Below are positions 43,944-60,845 of a stretch of 64,000 nt of DNA, piece by piece. The translations under genes and the position numbers were made by a program. Origin of the DNA: an uncultured bacterium (GTDB lineage Bacteria > Babelota > Babeliae > Babelales > Babelaceae); the NCBI GenBank assembly GCA_963819815.1, contig CAWFXL010000001.1, forward strand, positions 1,408,001-1,472,000, written 5' to 3'. Below the pieces are notes generated by a model. The model made no database searches. It saw only the letters and a list, made by a program, of their open reading frames with translations, and was not told where the DNA came from. Each line of letters begins with the position of its first letter. Position 1 is the first letter of the stretch.

Positions 43944-44198
43944 ATGTCTTATTGTTCTTACTATCGAGCACGAGTTGTTGAGAAGGACTGTTGGTTCTTA
44001 GTTGCTATAATGCGCAGCTTTGAACATCTTGCCTTTGATCGCACCTTTGACAAAGGCACGAGTACCTTTGAATTCTTTGTACCACAGGATCTTGAGCAAA
44101 CATTCTTGGAGCTCATGGAATTCTTTAAGGCGGAAGGGATTGTACAAGAATTATGCTCACTCCCTAATAGATTACTCGATCCCCAGGCAGTTATTTAA
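43944..44198 (+). CDS. Small conserved protein (DUF4911-like)
   Basis: FL..IMRSFEHLAFDRTFD...FEFFVP pattern; AAAGGA RBS. Confidence 0.6.
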   Translation: MSYCSYYRARVVEKDCWFLVAIMRSFEHLAFDRTFDKGTSTFEFFVPQDLEQTFLELMEFFKAEGIVQELCSLPNRLLDPQAVI

Positions 44199-45621
44199 CA
44201 AGATTCTCTAAGCGTACTTTTATTTCCTCGGGTGCGAGCATGCCAAGTAGGTCATGAATTGCAGGACCCTGTGCAGATCCGGTGAGCGCAATACGCACAA
44301 GAGAATAGATGTCTTTAACCGCAAATGAATGTTCTTTGCAGAGAGCTTTCAAAGCGAGGGCTCCGGTTTCTGGGCTGCCGGAGGCAATTTGAGGAATTAC
44401 CTTTTTCAATGCTTCCTTTGAATTGGAAAGCTTATAGGTTTCAAGAAGAGTTGTATCTAATGTTGGTCGCTCTGCAATAAACGTTAAAAGATCAGCACTT
44501 TGTTTGAGTGTTACCAGTTCTTCTTTGATCGGTAAAATTAAAGCTTTGATTTTTTCGTGGTCCCAGGAGCTGAGCATAGGAAGCTTTTTGTCAATGAAGG
44601 GACGACAGAGTTCAACGAGTTTATCAAGATCGTACCCCTTAATCCACTGGTGATTTACCCAACGAAGTTTTTCAACATCATATTTTATTTGACCCGTTGC
44701 AGACAGATGATCAAAATTATAACTATCGATCATCTCTTGTGCGCTCATAATTTCTTTTGGGACCGAATGTCCTATGATAGCAAGATAATTAGTGATAGCT
44801 TCCGGTAAGAAACCTGCCTCCTGAAGATCAGTTAGAGAAAATCCGAAGTCCCGTTTTGAGAGTTTCTTACCCTCGACATTACCAAGGATAGGTAGATGAC
44901 AAAATACGGGAACTTCTTCCTCAAAAACCTCATATAAGGCAACCTGAACCGCTGTGTTCGTTAAATGATCTTCACCGCGAAATACATGGGTGATCTTCAT
45001 AGCAACATCATCAACGAAGTTTGCAAATAAGAAGGTAAAGCTTCCATCTTGCCGAGTAAGAGGAACGTCAGAAAAATGCTTCAGTTCAAAGTGCATCGTC
45101 TTATGTGCTAAATCATAGAAGGTTACTGTTTTGGCATGGTCCAAGATGAAACGCCAAATAAAAGGCATGTCTCGTTCAAAACGAGCCTTGACCTCTTCTT
45201 TTGGTAGGGTAAGGCATGCACGGTCATACCGAGGCGGCTGCTTGAGGGCAAGCTGCCGTTGGCGCTTTTTCTCAAGCTCTTCGGTAGTGCAAAAGCACGG
45301 ATATATCGCATTTTTTTCTTTGAGTGTATTAAGCGCTTCAGTGTAGAGTGCCGTACGCTTCGATTGGAAATAGGGAGCATAGGGACCACTTTTTTCTGGA
45401 CCTTCATCAAAGGAGAGCTTCAACCACGCAAGGTCACTCAGGATACGAGTTGCATGTGGATCAACATTTCGTTCTGGGTCAGTATCTTCTATGCGAATAA
45501 TAAAAATGCCATCTTTTTGTCGTGCAAATAGGTAATTTATCAGAGCTGTGCGAACACTTCCTAAGTGCATAAAGCCAGTAGGTGAAGGGGCAAATCGTAC
45601 ACGAATGTTTGAGGTCTTCAT
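44191..45621 (-). CDS. gltX: Glutamate-tRNA ligase
   Basis: RVRFAPSPTGFMHLG, RIEDTD, RGEDH, KKLSKR. Confidence 0.97.
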   Translation of the reverse strand: MKTSNIRVRFAPSPTGFMHLGSVRTALINYLFARQKDGIFIIRIEDTDPERNVDPHATRILSDLAWLKLSFDEGPEKSGPYAPYFQSKRTALYTEALNTLKEKNAIYPCFCTTEELEKKRQRQLALKQPPRYDRACLTLPKEEVKARFERDMPFIWRFILDHAKTVTFYDLAHKTMHFELKHFSDVPLTRQDGSFTFLFANFVDDVAMKITHVFRGEDHLTNTAVQVALYEVFEEEVPVFCHLPILGNVEGKKLSKRDFGFSLTDLQEAGFLPEAITNYLAIIGHSVPKEIMSAQEMIDSYNFDHLSATGQIKYDVEKLRWVNHQWIKGYDLDKLVELCRPFIDKKLPMLSSWDHEKIKALILPIKEELVTLKQSADLLTFIAERPTLDTTLLETYKLSNSKEALKKVIPQIASGSPETGALALKALCKEHSFAVKDIYSLVRIALTGSAQGPAIHDLLGMLAPEEIKVRLENLVK

Positions 45622-45769: not shown

Positions 45770-45798
45770 TTGACGAATATGAGGAGGTACACTATCAT
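45770..45798 (+). promoter_or_regulatory. Sigma70-like promoter of array gene 1
   Basis: TTGACG-N17-TATCAT. Confidence 0.6.
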
Positions 45799-45866
45799 GA
45801 GTGCGTGCTGCTAAACAATAGTAAGTGAGTACTTTTGAGAGTATCCCTTACAAGAAAGGATTATGC

Positions 45867-46502
45867 GTGAAACATTCATTTAATCTGATCGTTCTAGTAA
45901 GTATGATAAGCCTAACCCCTTTGGTTACTGCTAAGACTATACTTGAGCAGCTTGAAACTGCAGTCAGCGAAGGAAATCTTCTGGAGGTAAAGTCATGCCT
46001 TCGTAAGCTCGATAGACAACCGATGACCCCCCAGGAGAAAAAGAGCACTTTTTCCGATCTGCTTGGGGTGAGTGAAGATACTCTCGAATTAGAGAAGACT
46101 AGCGACGGATTTTTAGGTGACAAGTGTGATATTGCTCGCTGTATAGCGGGTGCTCTTGTCGGTGTGTATGGTTTGTCTCAAGTTGTGCATAACTGGCATA
46201 CAATTAAAACAGGTACGTGTACCTATTGTAAGCGCATTGAGTGCAATGAGAGATGTAAATGCAAATCTTGTCTTACAGCACGTGCTAGATGTGGATGCAT
46301 GCCAAAAAAATTTACTCAAGTCGCCGGTTCATCCTCTAGACTGATGTATGGCTTGAGTGGTCTTCCGTATATAGGATTAGCATTGGCCGGCTTTTATCAA
46401 GTATTTCAAGGTTTGAGGGGAGCAAGTCGTGAATCAAAAATCAAGTCAGCTCAAAGTATCCAAGAGTTATTGAAAGAAAGAGTAGGTCGGCAGCGGCCCT
46501 AA
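45867..46502 (+). CDS. Hairpin-array family member 1 (Cys-rich central insert)
   Basis: AAAGGA RBS before GTG 45867; signal, EQLETAV...VKSCL, two hydrophobic helices, A.SIQELL end. Confidence 0.75.
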   Translation: MKHSFNLIVLVSMISLTPLVTAKTILEQLETAVSEGNLLEVKSCLRKLDRQPMTPQEKKSTFSDLLGVSEDTLELEKTSDGFLGDKCDIARCIAGALVGVYGLSQVVHNWHTIKTGTCTYCKRIECNERCKCKSCLTARARCGCMPKKFTQVAGSSSRLMYGLSGLPYIGLALAGFYQVFQGLRGASRESKIKSAQSIQELLKERVGRQRP

Positions 46503-46555
46503 GTTAGTGTATTTCATGGGTTTGCCATGCTAATGAGTGTTGAGATGATGACCAT

Positions 46556-46584
46556 TTGACTGCAAAGTAAGGTCATCGTATCAT
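46556..46584 (+). promoter_or_regulatory. Sigma70-like promoter of array gene 2
   Basis: TTGACT-N17-TATCAT, same CCATTTGAC...TATCATGA context as 45770. Confidence 0.6.
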
Positions 46585-46619
46585 GAAAATGAGCATGATG
46601 GCTTGATGGAGAATAAAAA

Positions 46620-47183
46620 ATGATGAATTATGTACTAAAAGCAGTATCTCTTCTGTTGATCTCTGTTCCTCTGCTCGCTGTTGAGCATGATTACCAGGAA
46701 CAGCTTGAAGCTGCAATTGTGCAAACAAATGCGCCTAAAGTGGCCCGTTTACTTAAGCGCCGTACGAGAACCTCGGTGAAGAACTTTAATCATATGCTCG
46801 GTTGGGCGAATGATATTATTGAAGAGCGACGTATGCTAGAATCAACTTCAGGTGAAGCAACGTGGGCAGTGGTTGCATCCATACTAGGTTTAGCTGCTGG
46901 TAGTCTTGGACTGTATTACTATTTTGATGGACGAGGTTTTCGGACTGATGTAAGGGCTTCTATTCTGGGAGCAGAGAAAGGCTTTTTTACCATGCTAGGG
47001 ATTGCGGGCCTTGCCGGCGCGTATGGTCTCTATAAGTACTGGTCGGGACCTCGATATCGTCTAGCAAAAGCATATGATATTCTTTTTTCTCTTGAAGATG
47101 CTGTTGATGCACTTGAAAAGAAGAAAAAGCTTCGCTCTCAATTTGAGAAACTTCGCGGAAAGATGCTTAAGGAGGCTCAATGA
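46620..47183 (+). CDS. Hairpin-array family member 2
   Basis: Signal; EQLEAAI...KVARLL; two TM helices. Confidence 0.78.
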   Translation: MMNYVLKAVSLLLISVPLLAVEHDYQEQLEAAIVQTNAPKVARLLKRRTRTSVKNFNHMLGWANDIIEERRMLESTSGEATWAVVASILGLAAGSLGLYYYFDGRGFRTDVRASILGAEKGFFTMLGIAGLAGAYGLYKYWSGPRYRLAKAYDILFSLEDAVDALEKKKKLRSQFEKLRGKMLKEAQ

Positions 47184-47737
47184 AACTTCTATGGATTGCA
47201 ATCAGTATCAGTTTTCTAGTACCATTGTATGGGAAAAGTACTCTTGAAGAGCGCATGATTAATGCTATAGCTCAGACCGATTTTCCTCTACTGCGAAAGC
47301 TTATGAAAAGATTTGATCGAGAGTATTTGAGCAAAGAAGATAGAGTGAAATCATTACAGCTGATCAGAGCTGCCTGTATGGATGTGGTAAAAGCTACTAA
47401 AGATTCTTCTCTTGTAACAAGTAAGCATGATCTTATGAAGTCACTTGTAGGAGGCGTAGCGGGTGTTTGGGGCTTGTCGCATCTTATCTCTAATGGAGAA
47501 TTGATGCAGGATCCTTCGAAAGCTAACGACCAATCATGGTTATTTGCTAAAGCCATAGGATCGGGTGTGACCGTGCTATCAGGTGGTTATTGGTTGATCC
47601 AGGGCTTAGTAAAAGCTTCACAGCAGCAGCGGCATGAAACTGCTTGCAAAATAGATGAATATCTTGAAAGTTGCATTAAAGAGGTTGAGTTACCAAGTAA
47701 AGAGTTATTTGTAACAACCTGGAACAGGTACGCTTGA
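47180..47737 (+). CDS. Hairpin-array family member 3
   Basis: Signal; ERMINAI; DLMKS; two hydrophobic helices; QGLVKASQ...ACKIDEYL. Confidence 0.78.
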   Translation: MKLLWIAISISFLVPLYGKSTLEERMINAIAQTDFPLLRKLMKRFDREYLSKEDRVKSLQLIRAACMDVVKATKDSSLVTSKHDLMKSLVGGVAGVWGLSHLISNGELMQDPSKANDQSWLFAKAIGSGVTVLSGGYWLIQGLVKASQQQRHETACKIDEYLESCIKEVELPSKELFVTTWNRYA

Positions 47738-47765
47738 CCGGATGCACGTGTATTAGGGTAATTGT

Positions 47766-48329
47766 ATGAATAAGGTGTATGAAATAGTTTTAATGAGTCT
47801 CATATCTATGAGTACTTGTATGCAGGCGGATCAGGAGTATAAGCTTGATCAAATAACAGCTGCTATTAAAGATTCCGACCTTGCTCGTGTGAAAACACAA
47901 TGGAGAAGAATTGATAGCATCTTTGAATCTTCCGAAGAAAAGAAGGAGATCCTAAAAACTCTTGTAGATACTGCAGCTCAAGTAGCCGATGAATCAAAAG
48001 TGAGACCAGTGGCCGGTGGAAAAAATTATAAGAAAATAGCAGGTGGTGTGCTTACAATCGCTGGCGCCTCGGGCGTAGCTGCCTATTATATGCCTTTACA
48101 TAGGTTGTTTTATGGCGCGACGCACAATGAACAGATTAAAGGATGGGCCATTTTCGTTGGGTTGGCTGCGGTTTCAATCGCTGGAGGTAGGCTTAGCAGA
48201 AATGGAATGGGATGGGAAGCCCAAGATCCGATAGCCAATCGTGGCCGTTCAAAGGCTACAGTTATTTTGGCATATCTTGAAGATCAACTGCATGATATAT
48301 TGAATGAAAACATTAAGTTGCAAAAGTAG
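47766..48329 (+). CDS. Hairpin-array family member 4
   Basis: Signal; DQITAAI...RVK; GRSKATVILAYLED. Confidence 0.78.
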   Translation: MNKVYEIVLMSLISMSTCMQADQEYKLDQITAAIKDSDLARVKTQWRRIDSIFESSEEKKEILKTLVDTAAQVADESKVRPVAGGKNYKKIAGGVLTIAGASGVAAYYMPLHRLFYGATHNEQIKGWAIFVGLAAVSIAGGRLSRNGMGWEAQDPIANRGRSKATVILAYLEDQLHDILNENIKLQK

Positions 48330-48337
48330 CGGATAGC

Positions 48338-48388
48338 ATGAAAAATCTTATATATGTAGCTACCCAATGTTATGCAGAGATAGATAGA
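48338..48388 (+). pseudogene. 5' remnant of an array gene
   Basis: ATGAAAAATCTTATATATGTAGCTACCCAATGTTATGCAGAGATA matches the starts of members 6-9 with an internal deletion. Confidence 0.7.
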
Positions 48389-48398
48389 GGTTAATTTT

Positions 48399-48941
48399 AT
48401 GAATAAGGCATATGGAATAATTTTAACGAGCCTTACTGTTATTAGTATCAGCATGCAGGCAAAGCAAGAATATGAGCTTGATCCGATAACAGCTGCTATT
48501 AAATGGTCTAATATAGCTCTGGTAAAAACAGAATGGAGAAGACTTGATAGTTCTATTGAGTCTTCAGAAGATAAGAAAGCTGTACTAAATACTCTTATAG
48601 ATATAGCAGCTCAGATAGCTGATAAGGCGGAAATCCCCTCAGTGGCTCCTAGCTGCAAAAGAAACTATTGGGCAGCGGTAGGGGGTATCCTCTTGAGCTC
48701 TTTTGGTAGTGGTATTTTTTTTGTTGGATTAGGGTATCATGGGCGAAATGAACATGCTGAATTGGCCTATTACCTTGTTGGGGGGGTCCCTTGGCAGAAA
48801 GGACTTAGGCTCATAGAAATTGGAGCAGGATGTGATGAAAATATCCAAGCGCCGACGGCCAATTGTGGCCGTTCGAAGGCTACAGTTATTTTGGCATACC
48901 TTGAAGATCTATTGCGGGATGTATCGAATAAAAAATCGTGA
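48399..48941 (+). CDS. Hairpin-array family member 5 (close paralogue of member 4)
   Basis: EYELDPITAAIK...WRRLDS; GRSKATVILAYLED. Confidence 0.78.
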   Translation: MNKAYGIILTSLTVISISMQAKQEYELDPITAAIKWSNIALVKTEWRRLDSSIESSEDKKAVLNTLIDIAAQIADKAEIPSVAPSCKRNYWAAVGGILLSSFGSGIFFVGLGYHGRNEHAELAYYLVGGVPWQKGLRLIEIGAGCDENIQAPTANCGRSKATVILAYLEDLLRDVSNKKS

Positions 48942-48963
48942 ATAGAGAAAGTGAGCACTCAAT

Positions 48964-49452
48964 ATGAAAAAACTCATGTATGTAGCTACGTTAGCTCTAG
49001 CTACCCAATGTTATGCAGAGATACATACGGAAAAGATAGAAGAAGCCATTGAGCAATCTTCACTTCCCCGAGTTAAATCTCTTCTTGGTAAAGTAGAACG
49101 TGGGGAAATGACTGCTAAAGCACGTAAAAAATTGTATATGAATTTTTATGATTTAGCTGTTGAAACTACCGAGAACCGTACGCAAAATCTCTCAATGGTG
49201 GGAAACTGGCGTGACATGCTAAGGACTGGACTAGGGGTAACAGGCCTACTTCTTAGTGGGCTTACAATGAGTTTCGGGACAGATCAGGGTGATGATATGC
49301 CTCGGTGGTTAGGCTTTGGTGTGCTTGGCGTATATTTCTTGTATAGAGGCATTGCGTGTAGTGCTCAAAAGGCCGAAATAGCCTCAGCAAAAAGCGTTGA
49401 AAAATATATTAAAGGGAAGCTTACTAAACTAGATGTGAGCTCTGATCTCTGA
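48964..49452 (+). CDS. Hairpin-array family member 6
   Basis: MKKLMYVATLALATQCYAE...EKIEEAIEQSSLPRVKSLL...GNWRD...GIACSAQKAE. Confidence 0.82.
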   Translation: MKKLMYVATLALATQCYAEIHTEKIEEAIEQSSLPRVKSLLGKVERGEMTAKARKKLYMNFYDLAVETTENRTQNLSMVGNWRDMLRTGLGVTGLLLSGLTMSFGTDQGDDMPRWLGFGVLGVYFLYRGIACSAQKAEIASAKSVEKYIKGKLTKLDVSSDL

Positions 49453-49477
49453 TAATCAACTAGAAAGGAATGCAATT

Positions 49478-50014
49478 ATGAAAAAACTCATGTATGTAGC
49501 TACGTTAGCTCTAGCTACCCAATGTTATGCAGAGATAAATACGGAAAAGATAGAAGAAGCCATTGAGCAATCTTCACTTCCCCGAGTTAAATCTCTTCTT
49601 GGCAGAGCAGATCTTGAGGAAATGACTGCCAAAGCACGTAAAAAATTGTATAGGGACTTCTATGATTTAGCGGTTGAAACTACCGAGAACCGTACGCAAA
49701 ATGTTTCAATCGTGGGAAACTGGCGCGACATACTTAAGACTGGTTCAGGGGTAGCAGCTCTTGTTCTAAGTGGGTTTGCAGGCTTAGGGAGTCTTGATAC
49801 AGATAATCAGGGTAGAATTACTGGTTTTAACAAGCTATGGCTCGGATCGTTAGGTCTTGGTGTGGCTAGCGTATATCTTTTGTATAAAGGTATCACGTGT
49901 AGTGCTCAGAAGGCTGAGGTAGCGGTAGCAAAAAGCATTGAAAAGTATATTAAGTCGAAGCTTAATAACTCCCATGCAAATGATGAGCTTGATGATAAAG
50001 AAGAAGGAAAATAA
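49478..50014 (+). CDS. Hairpin-array family member 7
   Basis: Near-identical N- and C-terminal blocks to members 6, 8 and 9. Confidence 0.82.
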   Translation: MKKLMYVATLALATQCYAEINTEKIEEAIEQSSLPRVKSLLGRADLEEMTAKARKKLYRDFYDLAVETTENRTQNVSIVGNWRDILKTGSGVAALVLSGFAGLGSLDTDNQGRITGFNKLWLGSLGLGVASVYLLYKGITCSAQKAEVAVAKSIEKYIKSKLNNSHANDELDDKEEGK

Positions 50015-50016
50015 GT

Positions 50017-50556
50017 ATGAAGAATCTTATGTATGTAGCGGCGTTAGCTCTAGTTACCCAATGTTATGCAGAGATAAATACAGAAAAGATAGAAGAAGCC
50101 ATTGAGCAATCTTCACTTTCCCGAGTTAAAGCTCTTCTTGGCAGGGCAGATCTTGAGGAAATGACCGTGAAGGCACGTAAGAAATTGTATAGAGACTTCT
50201 ATGATTTAGCTGTTGAAACTACGGAGAACCGTACGCAAAATGTTTCAATGGTGGGAAACTGGCGTGACATGCTCAAGACTGGCTCAGGGGTAGCAGCTCT
50301 TCTTCTAAGTGGGTTTGCAGGCTTATTCAGTCTTGATACAGATGATCAGGGTAGATTTACTGGTTTTGATAGGCGATGGCTATTCGGATCGGTAGGTCTT
50401 GGTGTAACTAGCGTATATCTTTTGTATAAAGGTATCACGTGTAGTGCTCAGAAGGCTGAGGTAGCGGTAGCAAAAAGCATTGAAAAGTATATTAAGTCGA
50501 AGCTGAATAATTCCCCTGCGAATGACGAGCTTGATGATAACGAAGAAGGAAAATAG
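50017..50556 (+). CDS. Hairpin-array family member 8
   Basis: Most recent duplicate of member 7. Confidence 0.82.
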   Translation: MKNLMYVAALALVTQCYAEINTEKIEEAIEQSSLSRVKALLGRADLEEMTVKARKKLYRDFYDLAVETTENRTQNVSMVGNWRDMLKTGSGVAALLLSGFAGLFSLDTDDQGRFTGFDRRWLFGSVGLGVTSVYLLYKGITCSAQKAEVAVAKSIEKYIKSKLNNSPANDELDDNEEGK

Positions 50557-50558
50557 TT

Positions 50559-51074
50559 ATGAAAAATCTTATGTATGTAGCGGCGTTAGCTCTAGCTACC
50601 CAATGTTATGCAGAAACAAATTCGGAAAAGATAGAAGAAGCCATTGAGCAATCTTCACTTCCCCGAGTTAAATCTCTTATGCGGGAAGCAGACAGCAATG
50701 AAATGACTGTCCAAGCACGTAAAAAGATGTATAAGAATTTTTACGATATGGCTGTTGAAACTACCGAGAACCTTACGCAGAATCTCTCAATAACGGGAAA
50801 TTGGCGTGATATGACAAAGGTCGGCTTAGGTGCAGCATCACTTCTTCTTGGTGGACTTCTAGCCTTAAGGAGTAGACATAGGGATAATGCCCATAGGGTG
50901 CATTATAATAGGCCTTCTCTCCTAGGATCGGCCGGTTTTTTGGGGTTTGGCGCATATCTTCTGTATCAAGGTGTCAAGTGTAGCTCTCAGAAGGCTTCTA
51001 TAGCGGTAGCAAAAAGTATTGAAAAATTTATGAAAAAGAAACTCACTAATCTGGATGTTGCTTCCGATCTTTGA
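50559..51074 (+). CDS. Hairpin-array family member 9
   Basis: Same scaffold; loop RSRHRDNAHRVHYNRP. Confidence 0.82.
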   Translation: MKNLMYVAALALATQCYAETNSEKIEEAIEQSSLPRVKSLMREADSNEMTVQARKKMYKNFYDMAVETTENLTQNLSITGNWRDMTKVGLGAASLLLGGLLALRSRHRDNAHRVHYNRPSLLGSAGFLGFGAYLLYQGVKCSSQKASIAVAKSIEKFMKKKLTNLDVASDL

Positions 51075-51104
51075 CAGCAAAGAAAGGAAAATAGAGGAAG
51101 AAAT

Positions 51105-51650
51105 ATGAAAAGACTTAGGGTTATAGGTGCTTTGGCTCTTACTACGCAAGGTTGCTTAGCAGTAGATATCGAAAGAATAGAAGATGCTATTAAGCAATCT
51201 TCACGTACCCAGGTTGAATCGCTTTTGAGTGAAATTGACCATGAAGAGATGACTCCAGAAGTACGTAAAGAGATGTATACGAATTTTTATGACTTAGCGA
51301 TAAAGACTACTGAGAGTCGCACTCAAAATCTCTCAATAGGGGGAAGTCGGTATGATCTGCTTAAGACTAGTTCGGGTATCGCCTTAGGTCTTCTTGCTGG
51401 GTTGAAGTTTTACGAGAGTTTTGGTAATCGCAATACCCGACTGCTGTACTCTGGTTTTCTAAGGGCCGGGTTCATCTTCAGGGTCGGAGATTGGGCACGT
51501 GTATTATCGTGCGGCTTTGGGATTCCAGCTCTCTATCTCTTATATAAGGGCATTACCTGCAGCACTCAGAAGGCAGAAATAGCCTCAGCAAAAACGATTG
51601 AAGAGCTTATTAAGGCGAAACTTAACGGGCTAGAGCCTGATCTTAAGTAG
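51105..51650 (+). CDS. Hairpin-array family member 10
   Basis: ERIEDAIKQSS...FYDLA...YKGITCSTQKAEIASAK. Confidence 0.8.
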   Translation: MKRLRVIGALALTTQGCLAVDIERIEDAIKQSSRTQVESLLSEIDHEEMTPEVRKEMYTNFYDLAIKTTESRTQNLSIGGSRYDLLKTSSGIALGLLAGLKFYESFGNRNTRLLYSGFLRAGFIFRVGDWARVLSCGFGIPALYLLYKGITCSTQKAEIASAKTIEELIKAKLNGLEPDLK

Positions 51651-51661
51651 GGAAGATTGAT

Positions 51662-52207
51662 ATGAAGAAACTATATGGTCTTATGTGGGCAGTTACTGCT
51701 CTTGGAAGTTACAGTTGGGCTGCGGTGCCGATTGAGCAACTAGAAGAAGCTATCACCCAATCTCGAGTAAGTCGAATCAAAGGCTTGCTGCATAAGGTAG
51801 GCAAAGAACAGATGTCTGAGCAAGCGCGGACGAAATTGCTGGGTAATCTCTATGATACGGCTGCGGAGCTTACTGATAAGCGCATCGACAGTAAATCTCT
51901 TATAGGCAGTTGGCGCGATATGACTAAGACTGTTTTTGGAACCATATGTTTTAGTGGTGGTATTATAGGGCTTGCTGTAGGTATTCAACATAGCACTAGT
52001 AATGATCAACGAATTGCAAACGCAAGCTATTATGGGAGAATTGGGAGCTGTGTACTTGCATCTTTAGGCGCCTATCTTTTTTATAAGGGCGTAACCTGCA
52101 GTTCGCAACAATATATGATAGATCAAGCAACTGAAGTAGAAGAATATATTGACAGTGTGCTTAATAATGCAGAGCTGCTGTTACTAGAAACCGCGGACAG
52201 TGAATAA
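51662..52207 (+). CDS. Hairpin-array family member 11
   Basis: EQLEEAITQS...GSWRDMTK...YKGVTCSSQ. Confidence 0.8.
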   Translation: MKKLYGLMWAVTALGSYSWAAVPIEQLEEAITQSRVSRIKGLLHKVGKEQMSEQARTKLLGNLYDTAAELTDKRIDSKSLIGSWRDMTKTVFGTICFSGGIIGLAVGIQHSTSNDQRIANASYYGRIGSCVLASLGAYLFYKGVTCSSQQYMIDQATEVEEYIDSVLNNAELLLLETADSE

Positions 52208-52223
52208 AGAAAGGCGATCTCAT

Positions 52224-52817
52224 ATGAACAAAATCTCTATCATTGTTTTGGTCAATATTGCGTTAGGTGCAACAACCTTCTGTGCATCTAAAACTGAATT
52301 AGAGAAGTTTGAAAAAGCTATCGTATCGGGCAGAACCGACAAGGTACGCTCATTGCTTAAGAACTATGAAAGCAAAAACCCTCCTGCAAAGGAACGGCAA
52401 GCTTTCGTAGAGAATCTTGCTCGAATAGCAAGCGATGTGGTGACCGATCATAAAGAAAGAATCTCGTTGCAAGGTAATATCAAAGATATTGTTACGTATG
52501 CAGATCGTGAAAAAGCCCAAGATTTAAGTCTCATCGGTCTTGGAGGAGCCCTTATTGCCCTCGGGTGCTGGTATGGAAAATCGGCATATACTCAGTATAT
52601 GAATAGTGCTCCTGGTGATCACGACGCGCGAAGCATCTATTATAAAGACCTTGTATTTAACGTTGGTATTGCATCTCTTGGGGGTATCTTTGGAGGCCTT
52701 CTTGCATATAGAGGGTATGCATGTACCATGCAAGAAAATGCGCTTAAAGCTGCTGAGAAAATCGAAACATTTCTTTTAGAATGTGCTGGTATCAACAAAG
52801 TAGATGACGAAGATTGA
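52224..52817 (+). CDS. Hairpin-array family member 12
   Basis: Signal; EKFEKAI...KVRSLL; YRGYACTMQ...AEKIETFL. Confidence 0.78.
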   Translation: MNKISIIVLVNIALGATTFCASKTELEKFEKAIVSGRTDKVRSLLKNYESKNPPAKERQAFVENLARIASDVVTDHKERISLQGNIKDIVTYADREKAQDLSLIGLGGALIALGCWYGKSAYTQYMNSAPGDHDARSIYYKDLVFNVGIASLGGIFGGLLAYRGYACTMQENALKAAEKIETFLLECAGINKVDDED

Positions 52818-52862
52818 TACTTTAGATACGAGAAAGCGATACGAAGTTTCTAGCGATCATAG

Positions 52863-52958
52863 TACTGTCAGGGATTGGCTTGTTCTTCGCAATATACTGA
52901 TATAGAGCGTGCACACGAGATCAAAAAGTTGTTTAAGCGAGATCTTGCCGCGAAATAG
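52863..52958 (+). pseudogene. 3' remnant of a further array gene
   Basis: Translates YCQGLACSSQYTDIERAHEIKKLFKRDLAAK*, matching the family C-terminus (Y.G..CS.Q...A..I); in-frame stop just upstream, no start. Confidence 0.7.
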
Positions 52959-53057
52959 AGTTGCGCTATAAGCTTGGGCTTTTGCTTCCTAGGTGATTTA
53001 GGTATACTCTAAAACTAGGTATAAGCAGTGAGAATCACATAGGTAAATGATGATACC

Positions 53058-54506
53058 ATGAATAAACGTAGTTTAGTTATTCTAGCTTTGCTTCTTGGAT
53101 CGAGTACTCTGCTTATGGCAAGCTCTGAAGAAGAAGCGCTGAGAAGGTTTAGACAATATGCTCAAGAAGGTGATCCTGTCTTGAGAGGGTCGAACCTTTT
53201 CAAGAGGCGCACTATTGATCCTGTGGCTGCCGCTGCAGAGAGGGAGGAGCTTAGGCGGATCCTTGATGAGATGAAGAATGATCCAACAGCTAATCCAAAG
53301 CATATACTTGCTGATATTGCGCATGAGCGTAAAATAGAAGATGAGGAAGCTGCTCAAAAAGATATTGATGATCTTAAATGGCAGAATACGCTTCTCGTTT
53401 CTGATCCTTCGGGTTTGGTGGGAATATATAAGGCAGATTTTATTAAGTCAGGATTACTCATAGCTTCTATTGTTGCCGATGTTAAGCTCTATAACGAGCT
53501 TACGCGTCGTCGAAAAGAACACATTATAGACGCAATACTTTCAGACATAGATATGTTTATTGCTCTGTTGAAGCGTGTGAACGAATCTGAAGCACGCTAT
53601 GACGAGCGTATGGCAAGCATGTCAGCATTTGCGCAAGTATTTACCGATCGAGAACGAGGTCATGATATCTTATTAAATCCACTGCGTAGGTATCTTGTTG
53701 AAAATCATACATTAGTAAAGGGATATATGCCTTTTACTAGTGAAACTATTGTCCCTTTAGTGGCGCGATGGGGTCTTGAAAAGGTATTTGATTGGCTAGA
53801 GAACAAATTACTGGTGAGTCCAAGAACACTAAGCTATAACAGACTACCCGGGCTTCAGGAACATTTTGATGCGTGGAGATTCGCCTATCAGCCAAATCAG
53901 GCAGGTCATCTAGTTCCTTTGAAGACTAATGTGTTAGAAATTACTGAAGGCTTAGGAATTGGTGTACCTTTTTCTTTCACAACCGCCCTCAAGACTTTGA
54001 TGATTATCGTAAGTCCGCTAAAGGCTCTTCAAAAGTTACTCTATCCTACTACATCTACTTGGTTGGGTGGGCTCTCGCTTGCTAACAAAGTTTCGGGTTT
54101 TGGGCTCCCAGACTTTTTATTTTCTGATACGGCCAAATTAGGTCTCGAGGTGGTTAGCATTGGATTTTCAGCAAAATATTATGATATGATTAATACCTCC
54201 AAGTGGGGTACCTATGTCCTTCAAAATAGAGATGAATTATTGGGTATTCTCTATAGATATCGAAGAGCGTTAGATAATGCATCGAGTGGTGAGGATGCTA
54301 TTGCTCAAGCTAAACAAAGGATACGCGACTTTGTGGAACAAGGGCATGAATCTAGGGGCTGGATTTCTGGAGCATCACTTGATTGGTGGAAAGTTCGAGC
54401 TGAAGGACGGGGATATGTTCACAAATGGCTGAGATACGGCGCTGCTACGCTCTTAGCGTTAAAGTTTGGGCACTGGTGGTTAACTGCAGAGCCAAAGCCG
54501 CAATAA
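53058..54506 (+). CDS. Hypothetical secreted/membrane protein (482 aa)
   Basis: Signal peptide, N-terminal coiled coil, several amphipathic/hydrophobic segments, hydrophobic C-terminus. Confidence 0.75.
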   Translation: MNKRSLVILALLLGSSTLLMASSEEEALRRFRQYAQEGDPVLRGSNLFKRRTIDPVAAAAEREELRRILDEMKNDPTANPKHILADIAHERKIEDEEAAQKDIDDLKWQNTLLVSDPSGLVGIYKADFIKSGLLIASIVADVKLYNELTRRRKEHIIDAILSDIDMFIALLKRVNESEARYDERMASMSAFAQVFTDRERGHDILLNPLRRYLVENHTLVKGYMPFTSETIVPLVARWGLEKVFDWLENKLLVSPRTLSYNRLPGLQEHFDAWRFAYQPNQAGHLVPLKTNVLEITEGLGIGVPFSFTTALKTLMIIVSPLKALQKLLYPTTSTWLGGLSLANKVSGFGLPDFLFSDTAKLGLEVVSIGFSAKYYDMINTSKWGTYVLQNRDELLGILYRYRRALDNASSGEDAIAQAKQRIRDFVEQGHESRGWISGASLDWWKVRAEGRGYVHKWLRYGAATLLALKFGHWWLTAEPKPQ

Positions 54507-54545
54507 GATAACTAGAGAAAAATGAATAGTGGAGGATACCATACT

Positions 54546-56174
54546 ATGAAAAGAAGCTTGAAAGTTTTAATAATCGGTGCTGCATTGTGCACGCTTACCC
54601 CCAACATGGCTCTAGCTGCTGACGCACTCGGCGGACTCATTGGAAGGCTTAAGGACTTGGCTACTAATCAAAAGGTAACCGATCTTGTCAAAAATGCATT
54701 TGATAAAGTTGGTGAAGGAGTGAAAAGTGTTCAAGACAGGGCTGCAGCTATAGAGACAGAGCGCCGGGAGGCGCATAGAAAGCTTAGAGATAATCTTTCT
54801 AAAAAGGCGAATGATCATACCCTGCAAAAATGGGAAAGAGAGGCTGCGCAAAAAGCATTATTGGATGAGGATGAACGGCATAGAGCGAATATGCAAAGGA
54901 ACGACGAAATTAGCCATGATGTTAAGAAAATGGCGGCGAACGCTGTTGGCAAGGCGGTGGATTATGGAATACAGGAAAGTTTTGCTATGGCAGCTCATAG
55001 CCGTAATCTCGAAGCGATAGCTCTTGAAGCGGCCCAAAAGCGTAAGGCGGCTGTGGAAAGTACCAAGGAGTACATCAAGGCTTTTACCGATCCTAAGAAC
55101 CTTACGAAGTTTGTTCTTGCTGCCGGCGGAGTGTTTGGTCTCTACTTCGGTCTTAAGCATGGTATTACCTATATTGCAGAGCAGTATAAAAAGCCAGAGC
55201 TTGCCGATTCTAATAAAACATCCTTAAAGTTTGGACCTCTCAACTTTTTTAAATCGTTGATTTATGGCACGATACAGGAAGATTCAGCTCTTTCAGATGT
55301 GATTTTAAAGCCTGAACTAGCTGAAGAGGTTAATGAGATTACTCAATCTCTTAAAAATATTGTGATGAATGGTGGCTATTTTGATAACTTGATGCTGTGG
55401 GGTCAGCCAGGTACTGGTAAAACCATGCTTGCCATGAGAATGGCCCGATCATGTGGTCTTGAATATATCTATTTTACGGCATCTAACTTAGAGACATTTA
55501 GCACCGAAGAGGCCTCTGCTCAGCTGGTACAGCTCTTTAGATATGCGCAAAATTCGCCGCGTAAGCTGATGATTATTATAGACGAGGCTGAAGCGCTTCT
55601 TGGAAGTCGTAGTAGGCCGGATATGACCGATAAGAAACGTACTCTTCTCAACCTTGTACTTGGCTATACGGGTACAGAAAGCCGTGACTATATGGTTACT
55701 GTGCTTACCAATAGGCCAGAAGATATCGATGAGGCGTTCCTCAGTAGGTGTGGTATGCGTATTCAAATTGGTGCACCGGATAAAACTGAACTGCGCGCGA
55801 TTCTTAAATCATACGTTGAAAAGATGTTGTTCAATGCATCGAACTTGAAGCCTGAGAAACCTTCATTCCTCAGTCCGAAATTCTGGTTTGGTAAGACTGA
55901 GAAGATAACTCCACCGACGATAGAAGAAGGAGCTCTCTCTGAAGAGGCTCTTGATACTCTAGCCGAAAAACTCAATGGTTTTGTTGGACGTGATATTTCT
56001 AAGCTTGTCTTTAGAATTCAAGGTTCAGCATTTACCACCGAAGATCATAAGATCACCGCTGCCTTGATTAATAAGGCTGTTGATAGAATGCTTAAAGAGC
56101 GTGCGGCAGAAAAAGGTGGATTTATTCGGGAAGGAACGAATAAGGGTGCTCCCAAGGCTGTAGCTGCTGCTTAG
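54546..56174 (+). CDS. ATAD3-like AAA+ ATPase with signal peptide
   Basis: GGAGGA RBS; coiled coil, TM helix, KPEL...TS, LSDVILKPEL, GQPGTGKT, IIIDEAEALL, TNRPEDID. Confidence 0.85.
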   Translation: MKRSLKVLIIGAALCTLTPNMALAADALGGLIGRLKDLATNQKVTDLVKNAFDKVGEGVKSVQDRAAAIETERREAHRKLRDNLSKKANDHTLQKWEREAAQKALLDEDERHRANMQRNDEISHDVKKMAANAVGKAVDYGIQESFAMAAHSRNLEAIALEAAQKRKAAVESTKEYIKAFTDPKNLTKFVLAAGGVFGLYFGLKHGITYIAEQYKKPELADSNKTSLKFGPLNFFKSLIYGTIQEDSALSDVILKPELAEEVNEITQSLKNIVMNGGYFDNLMLWGQPGTGKTMLAMRMARSCGLEYIYFTASNLETFSTEEASAQLVQLFRYAQNSPRKLMIIIDEAEALLGSRSRPDMTDKKRTLLNLVLGYTGTESRDYMVTVLTNRPEDIDEAFLSRCGMRIQIGAPDKTELRAILKSYVEKMLFNASNLKPEKPSFLSPKFWFGKTEKITPPTIEEGALSEEALDTLAEKLNGFVGRDISKLVFRIQGSAFTTEDHKITAALINKAVDRMLKERAAEKGGFIREGTNKGAPKAVAAA

Positions 56175-56246
56175 AAAGAAAGCAGTGCAGGATGAATAAA
56201 GGCTCTCATGACTGAATTCATCCTCTAAGGTAATTTCTCATACATA

Positions 56247-56284
56247 ACCGATGTCGCGAAATTATCCGCGGCATCGGTCTTTTT
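56247..56284 (+). terminator. Rho-independent terminator
   Basis: ACCGATGTCGCG-N8-CGCGGCATCGGT followed by CTTTTT. Confidence 0.75.
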
Positions 56285-56399: not shown

Positions 56400-56666
56400 A
56401 TGAACAAATGTTTAAAAATTACCTTAACGGTTGATCGTATGGAAGGCTTTTTGCATACTATTGTGCAATCTAAGGCCAGAAAGTGTGATCTAGAAGGTGT
56501 TGTTCAGCCAGTGAATGATTCGCAGATACGGATTATCGTCTGCGGAGAAAAAGAAAACGTTGATACCTTTGTCGATCTCTTGCAAAGAGAGGCAATTAAA
56601 GATGTTGAGATAGAACCTTTTGTGAAAGATAAAGATTACCGTGGGGTATTTCGGGTCATAGAATAA
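56400..56666 (+). CDS. Acylphosphatase-like protein (divergent)
   Basis: A...LEGVV...V.I..CGEKENVDTF and FRVI end; canonical GRVQGVGFR is degenerate. Confidence 0.65.
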   Translation: MNKCLKITLTVDRMEGFLHTIVQSKARKCDLEGVVQPVNDSQIRIIVCGEKENVDTFVDLLQREAIKDVEIEPFVKDKDYRGVFRVIE

Positions 56667-56745: not shown

Positions 56746-59337
56746 ATGATAATACTTGCTTTCATTGTTCTATCATTATGTTCGCTTATCGAAGGTGCTC
56801 CACAATACGTTGTTTCTAAAGTCAAAATCAAAAGCTCCCTGTTAGGGAAAGATCGTTTTATACCCCACTATCTTCATGAAGCGGGTGACTATTTTGATGA
56901 AGCTCAACACAAAAGATCTCTTCTTCTTCTACAGCAGGAGCTTCGTGATGATGGGTATCTGAGAGCTTCAGTGAAAGATGCTCTTACTAAGGATGAGCTG
57001 AGTAAGACTATTTCGGTATTTTTACAGCTTGATCCTGGTAAGAGATTTACAGTATCTGCTGTTAAGGTTACTAGTATAGGCAGTCTTTTAACCACTACTG
57101 ACGAAACTCTTAATCGAGATATGCATGCCTTGCTTGAACCTCTAGTGGGTTCTTTTGCAGAACGGAAGACTATCAATGAGTATGGCAAACGGCTTCATAC
57201 TTTACTGATCCGCAAGGGGTATGTGAAGCCAGTCATAGAACTTACAGAAATAGATCATGAAGAAAGCGCGCAGGTTGAGCTAAGCTATACTATAACGTCT
57301 TCAGAACGGCATGAGTTTCGTTTTGTAGGGAACCAATTTTTTAGCACGACAGAATTACTCGATGATCTTCTTTCTTTGCTTGAGGAAGGGATCTCCTTGC
57401 CTCCAGCATTGATCGCACAGGATATTCAAGATCTCTATAAGAAAAAGGGCTTTATACAAGCAAAAGTGCATTGGCAGGAGGATGCAGAATTAGTCACGTT
57501 TTTTATCGCAGAAGGAGAAAGGCATACGGTTGGCAATGTTATGATCATGGAAGAATTTACCGATGGAAAATCGCTTGCTGTGCTTACGAGCCTCGAGGCT
57601 GCTCTTATAAAACTGCCTGCGTATGATGAAGAGCAAATTGATCTTCTTTTTAATAAAGCCTCAGTGGCTCTTGCAGATCTTGGATACTGGCACCTTGTCC
57701 TTGATAAAGAAGTAACCCGTGCAAAGGATGCAGCCAAGATGGACCTTCTGATTTCTATTACTCAGGCGGATACTGAAGGATCACCGAAGTGCATGATGGT
57801 GACGCAGGTAAGTATTCCCGGGTATGAGGAGCTCCTTTTCCAAGGACCCTTTGCTGAGTGGCAGATGCTCAAAGAACCCTGTTGTGTAAAACCTTCAGAT
57901 ATAGATGTGCAAAGGCGTTGGCTTATGAGCTTTATCAAAGGTAAAGGGTACCAGTCGGCGCATATTTTCTATGAGGTTGATAAAGATCTTAGGATGATCT
58001 GGAAAATAGAGGATCTTGAGGGACCTGTGCGATTTGGGCCAGTCGAGATATTGGGCCTTCATAAAATGAAGCCCTTTATTGTACGCAGAGAGTTGTGTTT
58101 TAAAGAAGGGGACATTTTTGATAGACAGAAGATTGATGCTTCAGTAAAGCGCCTACAGGGCTTACATATGTTTGAATCGATCACCTTTCACCCAGAGGAG
58201 ACGGTTGAGAAGACGCAGAAGGGTGAGACTCAGCTCATAAAACCTATGCTTATTAAGTGTTGTGAAGATGACCCTTATGAAGTGCTCACCCGTTTTGGTC
58301 TTCAGTTTGTCAGTAAGAGCTTTACGAACGTGTCTTGGACAACCTGGAAGCTTGGGGGCTCTTTTATTTGGAAGAATCCTACAGGCTATGCTGATCGGCT
58401 TATGCTTGATGCTGATTGGACAAGGTATACCTTAAATCTTTCTGCAGGCTATGAGCTCCCCTGGTTAGGCCCATGGCGGATTCGAACTCTAGCGAAGGTA
58501 TACAGTGATCGGTTTGATCAACCCCTTGTTGCAAACAGGAATCATCGGCTGTATAAAGAAGCACATGATGGGTTTAGCTTGACCTTTAACTATCAACATC
58601 CTTGGTGGGTAACCTGTGTACGTACAGGTTTTGAGCTTAATAAACTCTCGGGGATTTCTCATGAGTTAGCACGAGTTATTCAATTTGAACCTAGGTTAGT
58701 AGACCAGAGGATTCCTTACTTCTATTGTGAACCATCGGTAACCTTCGAGCATTTTGATAATAAAGCTGATCCTTCTCGAGGCTTCTTTTCAACCTTTTCA
58801 CTCAAAGCCATGGTTCCGCCAACGGTTACTGATGGCTGGTTTGTAAAAGCAGCACTTGAGCAGTCACTGTTTTATCCACTGTATAATTCGGTTATTGGTG
58901 CAGTACGGTGGCGTGTTGGGCATATCTTTAATGCTAAGTTCAGTACAATTTTGCCCACTGAGCGATTCTATTTGGGAGGTGCAAACTCATTACGCGGTTA
59001 TGAGACGAACATGGTCCCCCCTTTAAATGATGTTACCTGCGATGGACGATGTATCTGGGTACCTGTTGGTGGTAAAACAATGGCAAACGTTAATGCAGAG
59101 GTACGATTTCCCCTCTACAAACGGTTAAGTGGTGTGGTCTTTACTGATATGGGTATTCTTACACAAGATAAATTTGCCGATATTGCTGCTAATAAGTGGC
59201 TCGGTGCCTCAGGGATAGGTCTAAGATTTGCTTCACCGATTGGCCCTGTTCGTTTTGATATCGGTTGGAAGTGGCATAAGCGAGATCCTCGAGATAAATC
59301 GTATGCCTTCTTCTTTACCCTTGGCCATGCTTTCTAA
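56746..59337 (+). CDS. Omp85 family outer-membrane protein (BamA/TamA-like) with POTRA domains
   Basis: POTRA-like repeats; ERFYLGGANSLRGY, SPIGPVRFDIG, C-terminal GHAF. Confidence 0.92.
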   Translation: MIILAFIVLSLCSLIEGAPQYVVSKVKIKSSLLGKDRFIPHYLHEAGDYFDEAQHKRSLLLLQQELRDDGYLRASVKDALTKDELSKTISVFLQLDPGKRFTVSAVKVTSIGSLLTTTDETLNRDMHALLEPLVGSFAERKTINEYGKRLHTLLIRKGYVKPVIELTEIDHEESAQVELSYTITSSERHEFRFVGNQFFSTTELLDDLLSLLEEGISLPPALIAQDIQDLYKKKGFIQAKVHWQEDAELVTFFIAEGERHTVGNVMIMEEFTDGKSLAVLTSLEAALIKLPAYDEEQIDLLFNKASVALADLGYWHLVLDKEVTRAKDAAKMDLLISITQADTEGSPKCMMVTQVSIPGYEELLFQGPFAEWQMLKEPCCVKPSDIDVQRRWLMSFIKGKGYQSAHIFYEVDKDLRMIWKIEDLEGPVRFGPVEILGLHKMKPFIVRRELCFKEGDIFDRQKIDASVKRLQGLHMFESITFHPEETVEKTQKGETQLIKPMLIKCCEDDPYEVLTRFGLQFVSKSFTNVSWTTWKLGGSFIWKNPTGYADRLMLDADWTRYTLNLSAGYELPWLGPWRIRTLAKVYSDRFDQPLVANRNHRLYKEAHDGFSLTFNYQHPWWVTCVRTGFELNKLSGISHELARVIQFEPRLVDQRIPYFYCEPSVTFEHFDNKADPSRGFFSTFSLKAMVPPTVTDGWFVKAALEQSLFYPLYNSVIGAVRWRVGHIFNAKFSTILPTERFYLGGANSLRGYETNMVPPLNDVTCDGRCIWVPVGGKTMANVNAEVRFPLYKRLSGVVFTDMGILTQDKFADIAANKWLGASGIGLRFASPIGPVRFDIGWKWHKRDPRDKSYAFFFTLGHAF

Positions 59338-60676: not shown

Positions 60677-60845
60677 GCGATTCCTTAATGTAGTGAGGAG
60701 GTGTGTATAAATTACTATTAGCAATAGCATACCACGGACAATGAAGTTAGCAATGAGAATATAATCGCGCAACGCCAGTTGAGCTTTTGGCATTCTTGCG
60801 AAATTTATGTATAGTTCATAGAAGATATAATCAAAGGATTACTTC

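Follow-up and report, generated by a model that had tools for sequence, protein, structure and literature searches.

Introduction

Small proteins termed babelins were listed in a 2015 paper on Babela massiliensis, with Babela_gene_103 as their prototype, and were described as lying mostly near Ulp1-like/AAA fusion proteins, a placement held to be "suggestive of a functional link" (PMC4378268). Supplementary table 9 of that paper records SignalP 1 and TMHMM 2 for the prototype; the family was noticed and named at that time without characterization, and its structure, topology, distribution and function go unmentioned. Here we analysed a stretch of 64,000 nucleotides (the window) from an uncultured bacterium of the Babelaceae (GenBank assembly GCA_963819815.1, contig CAWFXL010000001.1, positions 1,408,001 to 1,472,000 of the forward strand; G000:C1:1408001-1472000 in our numbering), in which a tandem array of twelve babelin genes is followed by a gene for an exported protein, here called ORPH, and by a gene for an AAA+ ATPase of the ATAD3 type. 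The source genome (G000) comprises 1.64 Mb in two contigs and is 88% complete. G-codes denote genomes of a set of 261 Dependentiae genomes, in which G013 was taken as B. massiliensis.

Several other described systems share features with this block. Chlamydial inclusion membrane (Inc) proteins lack Sec leaders, are secreted by the type III pathway and expose their termini to the host cytosol. Like babelins, they form multi-copy families in an obligate intracellular bacterium, and their two neighbouring hydrophobic segments, joined by a short loop, may have a counterpart in the babelin hairpin; in contrast, every babelin carries a Sec-type leader, and its conserved parts are predicted to fold into a head opposite the loop. 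FtsH, Bcs1 and Msp1 are AAA+ rings held at the membrane by N-terminal transmembrane helices, with the motor on the side where ATP is available. The ATPase of the window would likewise be anchored by an N-terminal transmembrane helix with its motor on the ATP side, but it has no protease domain and no conserved aromatic pore-loop residue, and it comes with a gene for a dedicated, putatively periplasmic partner. SlyB, whose fold is a beta sandwich, and YfgH, both glycine-zipper lipoproteins of the outer membrane, are, like babelins, exported proteins with a glycine-rich two-helix hairpin; the babelin head, unlike that of SlyB, is predicted to be helical. A recent preprint reports that the two lipoproteins bind to proteins of the outer membrane, BamA among them (bioRxiv 10.64898/2025.12.22.696046).

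The ATPase itself falls with ATAD3, which is essential in animals and Plasmodium and whose mechanism is poorly understood. A 2026 study of Plasmodium ATAD3 gives the topology of the protein and notes that it was first thought to be confined to multicellular eukaryotes; the words bacteria and prokaryote do not occur in the accessible text (PMC13249166). The literature covered treats ATAD3 as purely eukaryotic, and within that coverage, which left out subscription journals and bioRxiv supplements, no work was found that joins ATAD3 with Dependentiae or describes bacterial ATAD3-like proteins.

Gene content of the block

Two units that can occur apart, both specific to Dependentiae, make up the block: the babelin array and an obligate ORPH-ATPase gene pair. 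Both lie between gltX and an acylphosphatase-like gene that precedes bamA, an interval in which the open reading frame (ORF) listing gives twelve + strand paralogues (45825-52817), ORPH, the AAA+ ATPase and a terminator-like hairpin. An earlier note on this DNA had described twelve adjacent + strand genes of one architecture, a 482-residue exported protein, a leader-bearing ATAD3-like ATPase, a strong terminator and an Omp85 gene thereafter, and this anatomy held throughout. The genes of the two units are as follows.

45825-46502, + strand: babelin h1, start codon uncertain (199 residues in the gene-caller version)
46620-47183, + strand: babelin h2
47180-47737, + strand: babelin h3
47766-48329, + strand: babelin h4
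48399-48941, + strand: babelin h5
48964-49452, + strand: babelin h6, first of the youngest subgroup (h6 to h9, 61-89% amino acid identity among themselves)
49478-50014, + strand: babelin h7
50017-50556, + strand: babelin h8
50559-51074, + strand: babelin h9
51105-51650, + strand: babelin h10
51662-52207, + strand: babelin h11
52200-52817, + strand: babelin h12
53058-54506, + strand: ORPH, 482 residues, exported, predicted all-helical, with a putative C-terminal hydrophobic anchor
54522-56174, + strand: ATAD3-clade AAA+ ATPase, 550 residues; leader, about 150 helical or coiled residues, transmembrane-like segment at 194-211, AAA domain (PF00004, E 3.3e-21) and lid

The ATPase and its relation to ATAD3

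Alignments and trees place the ATPase in the ATAD3 clade, collinear with eukaryotic ATAD3 from the transmembrane helix to the C-terminus. Beyond the group of Dependentiae-type proteins, its best matches carry PF12037, the ATAD3_N domain (Phytophthora, E 9.2e-39, versus 2.6e-21 or weaker for Cdc48-type proteins). Aligned by BLASTP, the ATPase and the Phytophthora protein share 29% identity over 408 columns, covering ATPase residues 134 to 530, and hhalign paired residues 188-540 with ATAD3 354-699 at a probability of 100% (E 5.4e-64). Within that alignment, residues 188-247 correspond to ATAD3 354-418, so that the transmembrane helix and the juxtamembrane P.L..ETS motif are common to both. The Walker A, Walker B, sensor and Arg positions were invariant in 54 homologues.

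Upstream of the membrane helix the two proteins part. PF12037 itself had no match at E <= 0.01 with the whole ATPase, nor at E <= 10 with residues 1-283; only the last ~50 positions of the ATAD3_N domain, containing the transmembrane helix and the motif after it, are shared, and the N-terminal 150 residues of the ATPase show no detectable relation to the ATAD3_N coiled coil. The likeness to ATAD3 thus lies in the AAA domain, the transmembrane helix, P.L..ETS and the lid, together with a probable topology in which a helical N-terminal part stands outside the energized membrane and the ATPase domain inside. The differences are that ATAD3 is nuclear-encoded and mitochondrial, whereas the gene of the window is bacterial, lies between gltX and bamA, encodes a Sec-type leader and always has ORPH as its upstream partner.

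In a tree, 41 ATAD3-type rows (33 Dependentiae-type, a label that rests on few source names, 5 eukaryotic with PF12037, and 3 others) were separated from 11 Cdc48/FtsH-type rows with a support of 100 in the Shimodaira-Hasegawa-like approximate likelihood ratio test (SH-aLRT). These trees were quick LG+G4 searches with half of the Dependentiae-type rows, a third of the outgroup rows and five eukaryotic rows. A first quick tree nested eukaryotic ATAD3 within the bacterial rows; the nesting was gone after two long-branch rows were removed, and the bacterial rows then formed one group (support 87). We therefore rejected the nesting as unsupported; the trees are compatible with transfer in either direction and do not support the earlier description of the ATPase as captured. 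A bacterial ATAD3 clade with an obligate partner gene gives a tractable system for study and opens the origin of ATAD3 to testing.

Homologues of the pair had already been tabulated in B. massiliensis. The table lists genes 651 and 653, the ATPase homologues, as "ATPase of the AAA+ class", with best RefSeq matches in Viridiplantae at E ~1e-56, and SignalP and TMHMM flag the homologues of the ORPH-ATPase pair (PMC4378268); the word ATAD3 does not occur in the main text. The Ulp1-like/AAA family of the same organism was considered as the counterpart of the ATPase and set aside: those proteins are ~1900 residues long, and the true homologues are genes 651 and 653.

Elsewhere in the source genome, a paralogue of the ATPase (G000:C1:1238216-1239739) shares 34% identity with it and has a leader and one transmembrane helix, with no ORPH-like neighbour. 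A short Ala-rich C-terminal tail occurs on both the ATPase (window 56130-56174, ...AVAAA) and this paralogue (...ATAAA). An ATPase-like fragment on the minus strand (G000:C1:860987-861643; 38% identity over residues 311-530, one TGA interruption) may be a decayed third copy.

ORPH

In each of the 21 genomes in which the locus was read (source genome included; six family codes), the ORPH gene lies directly upstream of the ATPase gene and on its strand; the pair is duplicated in three of these genomes. This adjacency is the most robust regularity of the dataset; in the window the gap between the two genes is 15 nucleotides. ORPH was found in 33 of the 261 Dependentiae genomes (E <= 1e-5), again in six family codes, and is in that sense a family rather than the orphan it had been called; the searches run found no relatives outside Dependentiae.

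A 25-row alignment of ORPH shows an N-terminal leader and conserved motifs, among them WQNTLL and LLNPLRRY; towards the C-terminus a hydrophobic stretch runs into basic and aromatic residues, and we read this stretch as a probable membrane anchor. The predicted structure was all-helical (predicted local distance difference test, pLDDT, 79.0). ORPH matched no Pfam family; in the PDB, Foldseek found nothing at E <= 0.001 (best 0.12), a wide VIA-align search reached Z 6.0 at best, below the stated noise for helical proteins, and the ESM Atlas gave no usable match.

The babelin family

The twelve paralogues (162-225 residues) align as one family with a mean column identity of 32%, and both motifs that had been proposed for them, E.(L/I)E.AI...V..LL and G..C..Q...A..IE.Y, are present in the alignment. 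A search of the whole genome recovered all twelve at E 1.8e-67 to 9.7e-44. Judged by eye from the sequences, all twelve have a Sec-type leader at the N-terminus (MKK, then a hydrophobic run and small residues), leaving a mature protein of ~150 residues. No housekeeping family was matched, and no Pfam match attained the threshold of its family: 11 of the 12 paralogues had no Pfam match at E <= 0.01, and among 94 members (the twelve paralogues and relatives from other genomes; alignment A2) the Pfam scan returned eight unrelated families, each matched by a single member. One of these matches, DMAC1_Dmo2 in h9 (E 0.004; 17.7 bits versus a cut-off of 27; 1 of 94 members), was treated as compositional.

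An AlphaFold2 model of h8 (pLDDT 87.4; predicted template modelling score, pTM, 0.72) places after the leader helices at 22-30, 34-46 and 51-74, a helix at 82-104, a loop at 105-118 with two beta bridges, a helix at 119-140 and a C-terminal helix at 143-164; the predicted shape is a long helical hairpin with a hydrophobic tip. Conservation among the 94 members is concentrated in the head, the helix ends and four glycines. The conserved positions of the first helix pair are L25, A28, I29, D33, V37 and L41; D84, just ahead of the first hydrophobic helix, is kept in 83 of the 94 members, and further conserved positions are G91, G98, G132, Y134, G139, C142 (62/94), A152 (89/94) and I155. The hairpin helices are rich in glycine (G+A+S fraction 0.40). 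The loop between them is the most gapped part of the alignment, ranging from 1 to 56 residues. The loop of h1 (window 46150-46300) holds a 52-residue insert with 8 Cys and two CxxC pairs; no other of the 94 members has three or more Cys in the loop, and if this insert binds zinc, the h1 loop would sit in a reducing compartment.

Fold searches found no counterpart for the babelin model. The best PDB match by Foldseek had an E of 0.22, far from the threshold of 0.001, and the best hits of a wide VIA-align search (Z 9.3, generic designed helical bundles) fell below the noise level stated for helical proteins; chains of the pore-formers AhlB, MakE, XaxB and YaxB appeared with non-significant scores only and were not used. 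The first helix pair of the head resembles an ankyrin cap. The best PDB profile match of the family was Bd3460 (E 0.0069), whose chain we take to be an ankyrin-type protein; the Pfam Ank families had no match in any of the 94 members. The source genome encodes leader-bearing ankyrin-repeat proteins of 500-670 residues at G000:C1:471318-473321, 871123-872955, 959629-961215 and 938386-940212, in which Ank domains were confirmed; one of them carries two MYND zinc fingers.

The family is large. A profile search of 1.84 billion cluster representatives (clusters at 50% identity) returned 996 proteins at E <= 0.001, a number that drops to 400 at E <= 1e-10 and to 54 at E <= 1e-30; almost all have 150-220 residues. 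Two of ten clusters looked up carry names, both Candidatus Dependentiae. Word-indexed protein searches returned just 7 babelin and 12 ORPH relatives, and exhaustive profile and genome searches were needed. At E <= 1e-8, 35 of the 261 Dependentiae genomes had a match. The source genome holds six scattered ORFs (E < 1e-6) in addition to the 12 array copies. The babelins have a confidently predicted but unmatched structure, in a phylum that is parasitic on protists and whose host-interaction machinery is barely known. At least 32 members were seen in G009, in three arrays (19, 9 and 4). Several matches contain in-frame stops, and some copies may be decaying, or the matches may cross gene borders.

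The identity of this family with the babelins of B. massiliensis rests on several matches. Our profile matched 14 places in G013 (E 3.9e-17 to 5.4e-4), the position of the prototype (974813-975046) among them at E 2e-7. With hhalign, the profile and the prototype aligned at 87% (E 3.8e-6) over 84 N-terminal columns only, the hairpin part of the prototype remaining unaligned. One full-length babelin in G013 lies 1.8 kb from a 1915-residue Ulp1-like/AAA gene, in agreement with the published placement (PMC4378268). The published babelins likewise have ~180 residues, a leader followed by ..I..AI......LL.., two predicted transmembrane helices and a C-terminal helix (PMC4378268, in its accessible part). 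They differ in arrangement: those of B. massiliensis are scattered or in threes, beside Ulp1-like/AAA fusions and not beside the ORPH-ATPase pair, whereas the neighbour of the array in the window is an ATAD3-type AAA+ protein of 550 residues with no room for a Ulp1-like domain.

Each babelin copy is under purifying selection. Nine orthologous pairs between G000 and G001 were 82-96% identical, with ratios of non-synonymous to synonymous substitution rates (dN/dS) of 0.14-0.51, similar to those of ORPH (0.28) and the ATPase N-terminus (0.37) in the same comparison; pairs within one genome gave 0.24-0.53. The array had earlier been described as diversifying, and only copy number and loop length were found to vary. 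Purifying selection on each paralogue points to working parts rather than decoys. For three babelins of G001 the nearest sequences in G000 are only 30-32% identical, and G001 in turn lacks near relatives of h5 and h8; three copies were gained or lost between these two genomes, whose ORPH proteins are 92% identical.

Conservation of gene order

The remaining features of the locus, which define its borders and spacing, are as follows.

44191-45621, - strand: gltX (glutamyl-tRNA synthetase; Pfam tRNA-synt_1c, E 8.8e-78), conserved left border
45770-45798, + strand: promoter-like TTGACG-17-TATCAT upstream of h1, 10 of 12 positions as in the consensus (a consensus match only)
52818-53057, + strand: spacer of 240 nucleotides between array and ORPH, with a weak -10-like TATACT at 53003-53008
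56247-56278, + strand: intrinsic-terminator-like hairpin, 12 pairs (8 G-C) and then a T run, strongest of 8 scanned sites
56400-56666, + strand: acylphosphatase-like gene, 88 residues (PF00708, 28.3 bits versus a cut-off of 22.5), conserved neighbour
56746-59337, + strand: BamA (Omp85, E 1.7e-36; POTRA repeats, E 1.2e-21), conserved right border

The order gltX (divergent), array, ORPH, ATPase, acylphosphatase-like gene and BamA was found in the window and in G001, G002, G003, G005, G006, G007, G008, G009 and G012. In the related loci, the gltX position is filled by a minus-strand gene of 475-490 residues, the acylphosphatase-like position by an ORF of 92 residues and the BamA position by an ORF of 830-950 residues. 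All array-pair loci of this order adjoin bamA, and order and strand persist even where ORPH shares no more than 24-33% identity with that of the window. In the distant G198 (family code f21), a babelin-family gene lies directly downstream of the ATPase gene. Altogether, an array or hairpin gene adjoins the pair in 11 of the 21 genomes read, with an upstream array in 10 and the downstream gene in G198.

Functional coupling had been proposed from adjacency in the window alone. To this can now be added the gene order conserved in related genomes and the case of G198; on the other side, array and pair stand apart in many genomes. The earlier note had also named separation of the array from the ATAD3-like gene in related genomes as evidence against its proposal: within the genus the two are linked, and across the phylum they are in part unlinked. 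It knew of no described system of this kind, but the small proteins already bore the name babelins and had been noted beside AAA-fusion proteins (PMC4378268). As far as our searches reach, what is undescribed in the literature covered is the obligate pairing of ORPH with an ATAD3-clade ATPase, the ATAD3-like collinearity and probable topology of that ATPase, and the placement of the pair with babelin arrays beside bamA in one genus.

Spacers within the array are short (-8 to +117 nucleotides). A possible promoter at 52980-53010 had been suggested, which might make ORPH and the ATPase a separate transcription unit. Our scan found no promoter-like site there or in the 240-nucleotide spacer under its criteria; by eye, TTGCTT and TATACT (53003-53008) can be read at a distance of 15 nucleotides, a spacing outside the rule of the scan. 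Promoter-like sites were not enriched across the region (27 observed versus 30.2 expected). A search of sequencing runs returned one DNA dataset that shares a small part of the sequence words, and no RNA dataset.

A proposed arrangement and its alternatives

Perhaps the most useful way to bring these observations together is an envelope-resident module built on an inner-membrane complex of ATAD3 topology, a reading that we favour tentatively. ORPH and the ATPase would most likely form an inner-membrane complex that reaches into the periplasm and is powered from the cytoplasm. An ATP-using domain that follows a leader and a single transmembrane helix implies a layout with the periplasmic part outside and the ATPase inside, which matches the topology given for ATAD3 in the available text (PMC13249166). 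The ATPase would accordingly be ordered as leader, helical periplasmic part, one membrane helix and cytoplasmic ATPase domain: the ATAD3 topology transposed to a diderm bacterium, with the leader doing the job of the uncleaved mitochondrial N-terminus. The babelins would be exported by Sec, each with a helical head, a long hairpin whose distal half is a glycine-rich, marginally hydrophobic two-helix membrane segment with a loop of highly variable length, and a C-terminal helix after the conserved Cys. Most likely they would be membrane-embedded partners residing in the envelope of the bacterium itself, the heads facing the periplasm and the loops emerging on the opposite side of the membrane; in this genus they would dock to the ORPH-ATPase complex, which may act on them with the energy of ATP. 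That all three families begin with Sec-type leaders was counted in favour of the envelope, as were the collinearity with ATAD3 and the invariant catalytic positions of the ATPase, the constant adjacency of ORPH and ATPase, the array beside the pair, the short spacers within the array, the neighbouring bamA, the purifying selection and the pattern of conserved babelin residues. A prediction of the complex from ORPH 23-482, ATPase 34-262 and babelin h8 19-179 (score 0.00, mark 0.32) counts neither for nor against binding.

A number of findings weigh against an envelope-resident module, and they concern the motor, the babelins and the linkage of the two units. The aromatic pore-loop residue is part of the canonical AAA+ motif, and the consensus of the 54 ATPase homologues has none that is conserved. 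This argues against classical substrate threading, and with it against the earlier idea of an ATPase that extracts or services the hairpin proteins, and speaks for a role as scaffold or tether, of the kind frequently suggested for ATAD3.

As to the babelins, 14 of the 24 expected hairpin helices in the twelve paralogues reached a mean Kyte-Doolittle value of 1.4 over 17 residues, a lenient threshold. Hydrophobicity is thus marginal, and such weakly hydrophobic helices may allow babelins to pass through Sec instead of staying in the inner membrane; the distribution of charges is uninformative, with no positive-inside signal. Set against the bilobed domain of Inc proteins, the model does have two helices (82-104 and 119-140), but with this hydropathy and with a loop of 1 to 56 residues. 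Copy number per genome runs from 1 (G007) to at least 32 (G009), a range typical of host-interaction families. Together, the leader and first helix pair align with the start of the leader-bearing ankyrin-repeat proteins that the source genome encodes (hhalign 94%, E 1.2e-7, 55 columns including the leader), and the available parts of two papers regard Dependentiae ankyrin-repeat proteins as secreted host effectors (PMC4378268, PMC6561590).

These properties of the babelins are also what a host-directed module would lead one to expect, a possible but less likely alternative, and the strongest of the rivals. Babelins would then leave the cell by Sec and a secretin-type (type II) pathway or in vesicles, the hairpin would insert into a host-derived membrane, and ORPH and the ATPase would aid export, insertion or turnover. 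The marginal helices, the shared N-terminal module of presumably secreted ankyrin proteins, the variable copy number with three copies gained or lost between close genomes, and the variable loop all agree with it, as does the long hairpin with hydrophobic tip in the h8 model; among the weak, non-significant fold neighbours of that model are parts of long-hairpin translocators and pore-formers. A route would be at hand, since the source genome has four secretin genes above the Pfam cut-off. Three of these secretin-domain genes (frames of 796, 829 and 942 residues) lie within 7.5 kb, at G000:C1:1178086-1185459, and the fourth at a distance of 22 kb; so many are unusual in a genome of 1.6 Mb. Neither the type III export gate (PF00771) nor VirB4 (PF03135) had a match in the source genome at its 88% completeness, in agreement with the type II system only that is reported for B. 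massiliensis in the accessible text (PMC4378268). Inc-like injection is consequently unlikely, and a host-directed role would need the Sec-plus-secretin route or vesicles. Against this alternative stand the absence of gene-wide positive selection (dN/dS 0.14-0.51), the location of the conserved surface in the head rather than in the loop that would face the host, and an inner-membrane ATPase whose cytoplasmic motor would have no obvious access to a secreted protein. Whether babelins reside in the bacterium's own envelope or in a host membrane would show how Dependentiae interface with their hosts.

The linkage between array and pair carries a further set of difficulties for the envelope-resident module, and these lead to a second alternative, to which we give less credence still: the interval between gltX and bamA would be a permissive slot for exported families, and array and pair would be independent. 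At the thresholds used, 13 genomes of the phylum hold both units, 20 ORPH only and 22 babelins only, so that both occur in only 13 of the 55 genomes holding either. G004 and G023 have an array in the slot without the pair, which in G023 lies on another contig. B. massiliensis has two ORPH-ATPase pairs, neither beside babelins, and all 14 family matches lie elsewhere. In G005, and in this genome only, three genes (250, 396 and 282 residues; L013:7660-10583) that match none of the three families part the array from ORPH, and in the window there is the 240-nucleotide spacer. Finally, 10 of the 11 linked cases share a family code (nine come from one genus and the tenth from another), and such close kin are not independent. 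However, the hairpin gene directly after the ATPase in G198 is a second, independent juxtaposition; order and strand have been held despite the great divergence of ORPH; and in B. massiliensis, too, babelins lie beside an AAA-containing family, the Ulp1-like/AAA proteins (PMC4378268). If the units are independent, the finding reduces to two uncharacterized families in one genomic slot.

A bolder reading is a long shot: that the ORPH/ATAD3-like pair could be an undescribed, periplasm-spanning, ATP-driven machine that places or maintains babelin hairpins in an outer or host membrane, and that among prokaryotes this clade could stand nearest to mitochondrial ATAD3 and might even be its source. 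If true, this would be a new route of protein insertion in a phylum whose genomes examined so far show only secretin-type secretion.

Least probable of all, outer-membrane hairpins like SlyB and YfgH, inserted from the periplasm and oligomerizing around outer-membrane proteins or lipids near BamA, would suit the glycine-rich hairpins with their conserved G91, G98, G132 and G139, the marginal hydrophobicity compatible with passage through Sec, the conserved position beside bamA and the precedent of the SlyB and YfgH rings (bioRxiv 10.64898/2025.12.22.696046, in its available text), but none of the 94 members matched the glycine-zipper Pfam family at E <= 0.01, the lipobox Cys is missing from most members, the glycines are spaced by 7 residues and not as GxxxG, and the fold searches, which are not decisive here, returned no SlyB-like chain. 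By eye, and relative to the usual lipobox consensus, babelin leaders mostly end without a Cys, and where one is present (..TQCYA..) the preceding residue is Q or T.

Other genes near the block

Three further ORFs flank the locus. An 84-residue ORF at window 43944-44198 (+ strand) overlaps the 3' end of gltX by 8 nucleotides and has a sub-threshold match to DUF4911 (E 3.1e-4; 21.2 bits versus 29.3). On the minus strand at 42048-43652 lies a gene for a 534-residue protein with a leader, a Pro/Cys-rich middle and an aromatic last residue, with which many outer-membrane barrels end; it matched no Pfam family at E <= 0.01. Beyond bamA, a 366-residue protein encoded at 59693-60793 (- strand) has an N-terminal hydrophobic stretch and a weak C-terminal RING-finger match (zf-C3HC4, E 6.6e-4; 19.9 bits, cut-off 21), and it is a candidate for a eukaryote-like E3 ligase mimic, such as the B. 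massiliensis paper mentions (PMC4378268).

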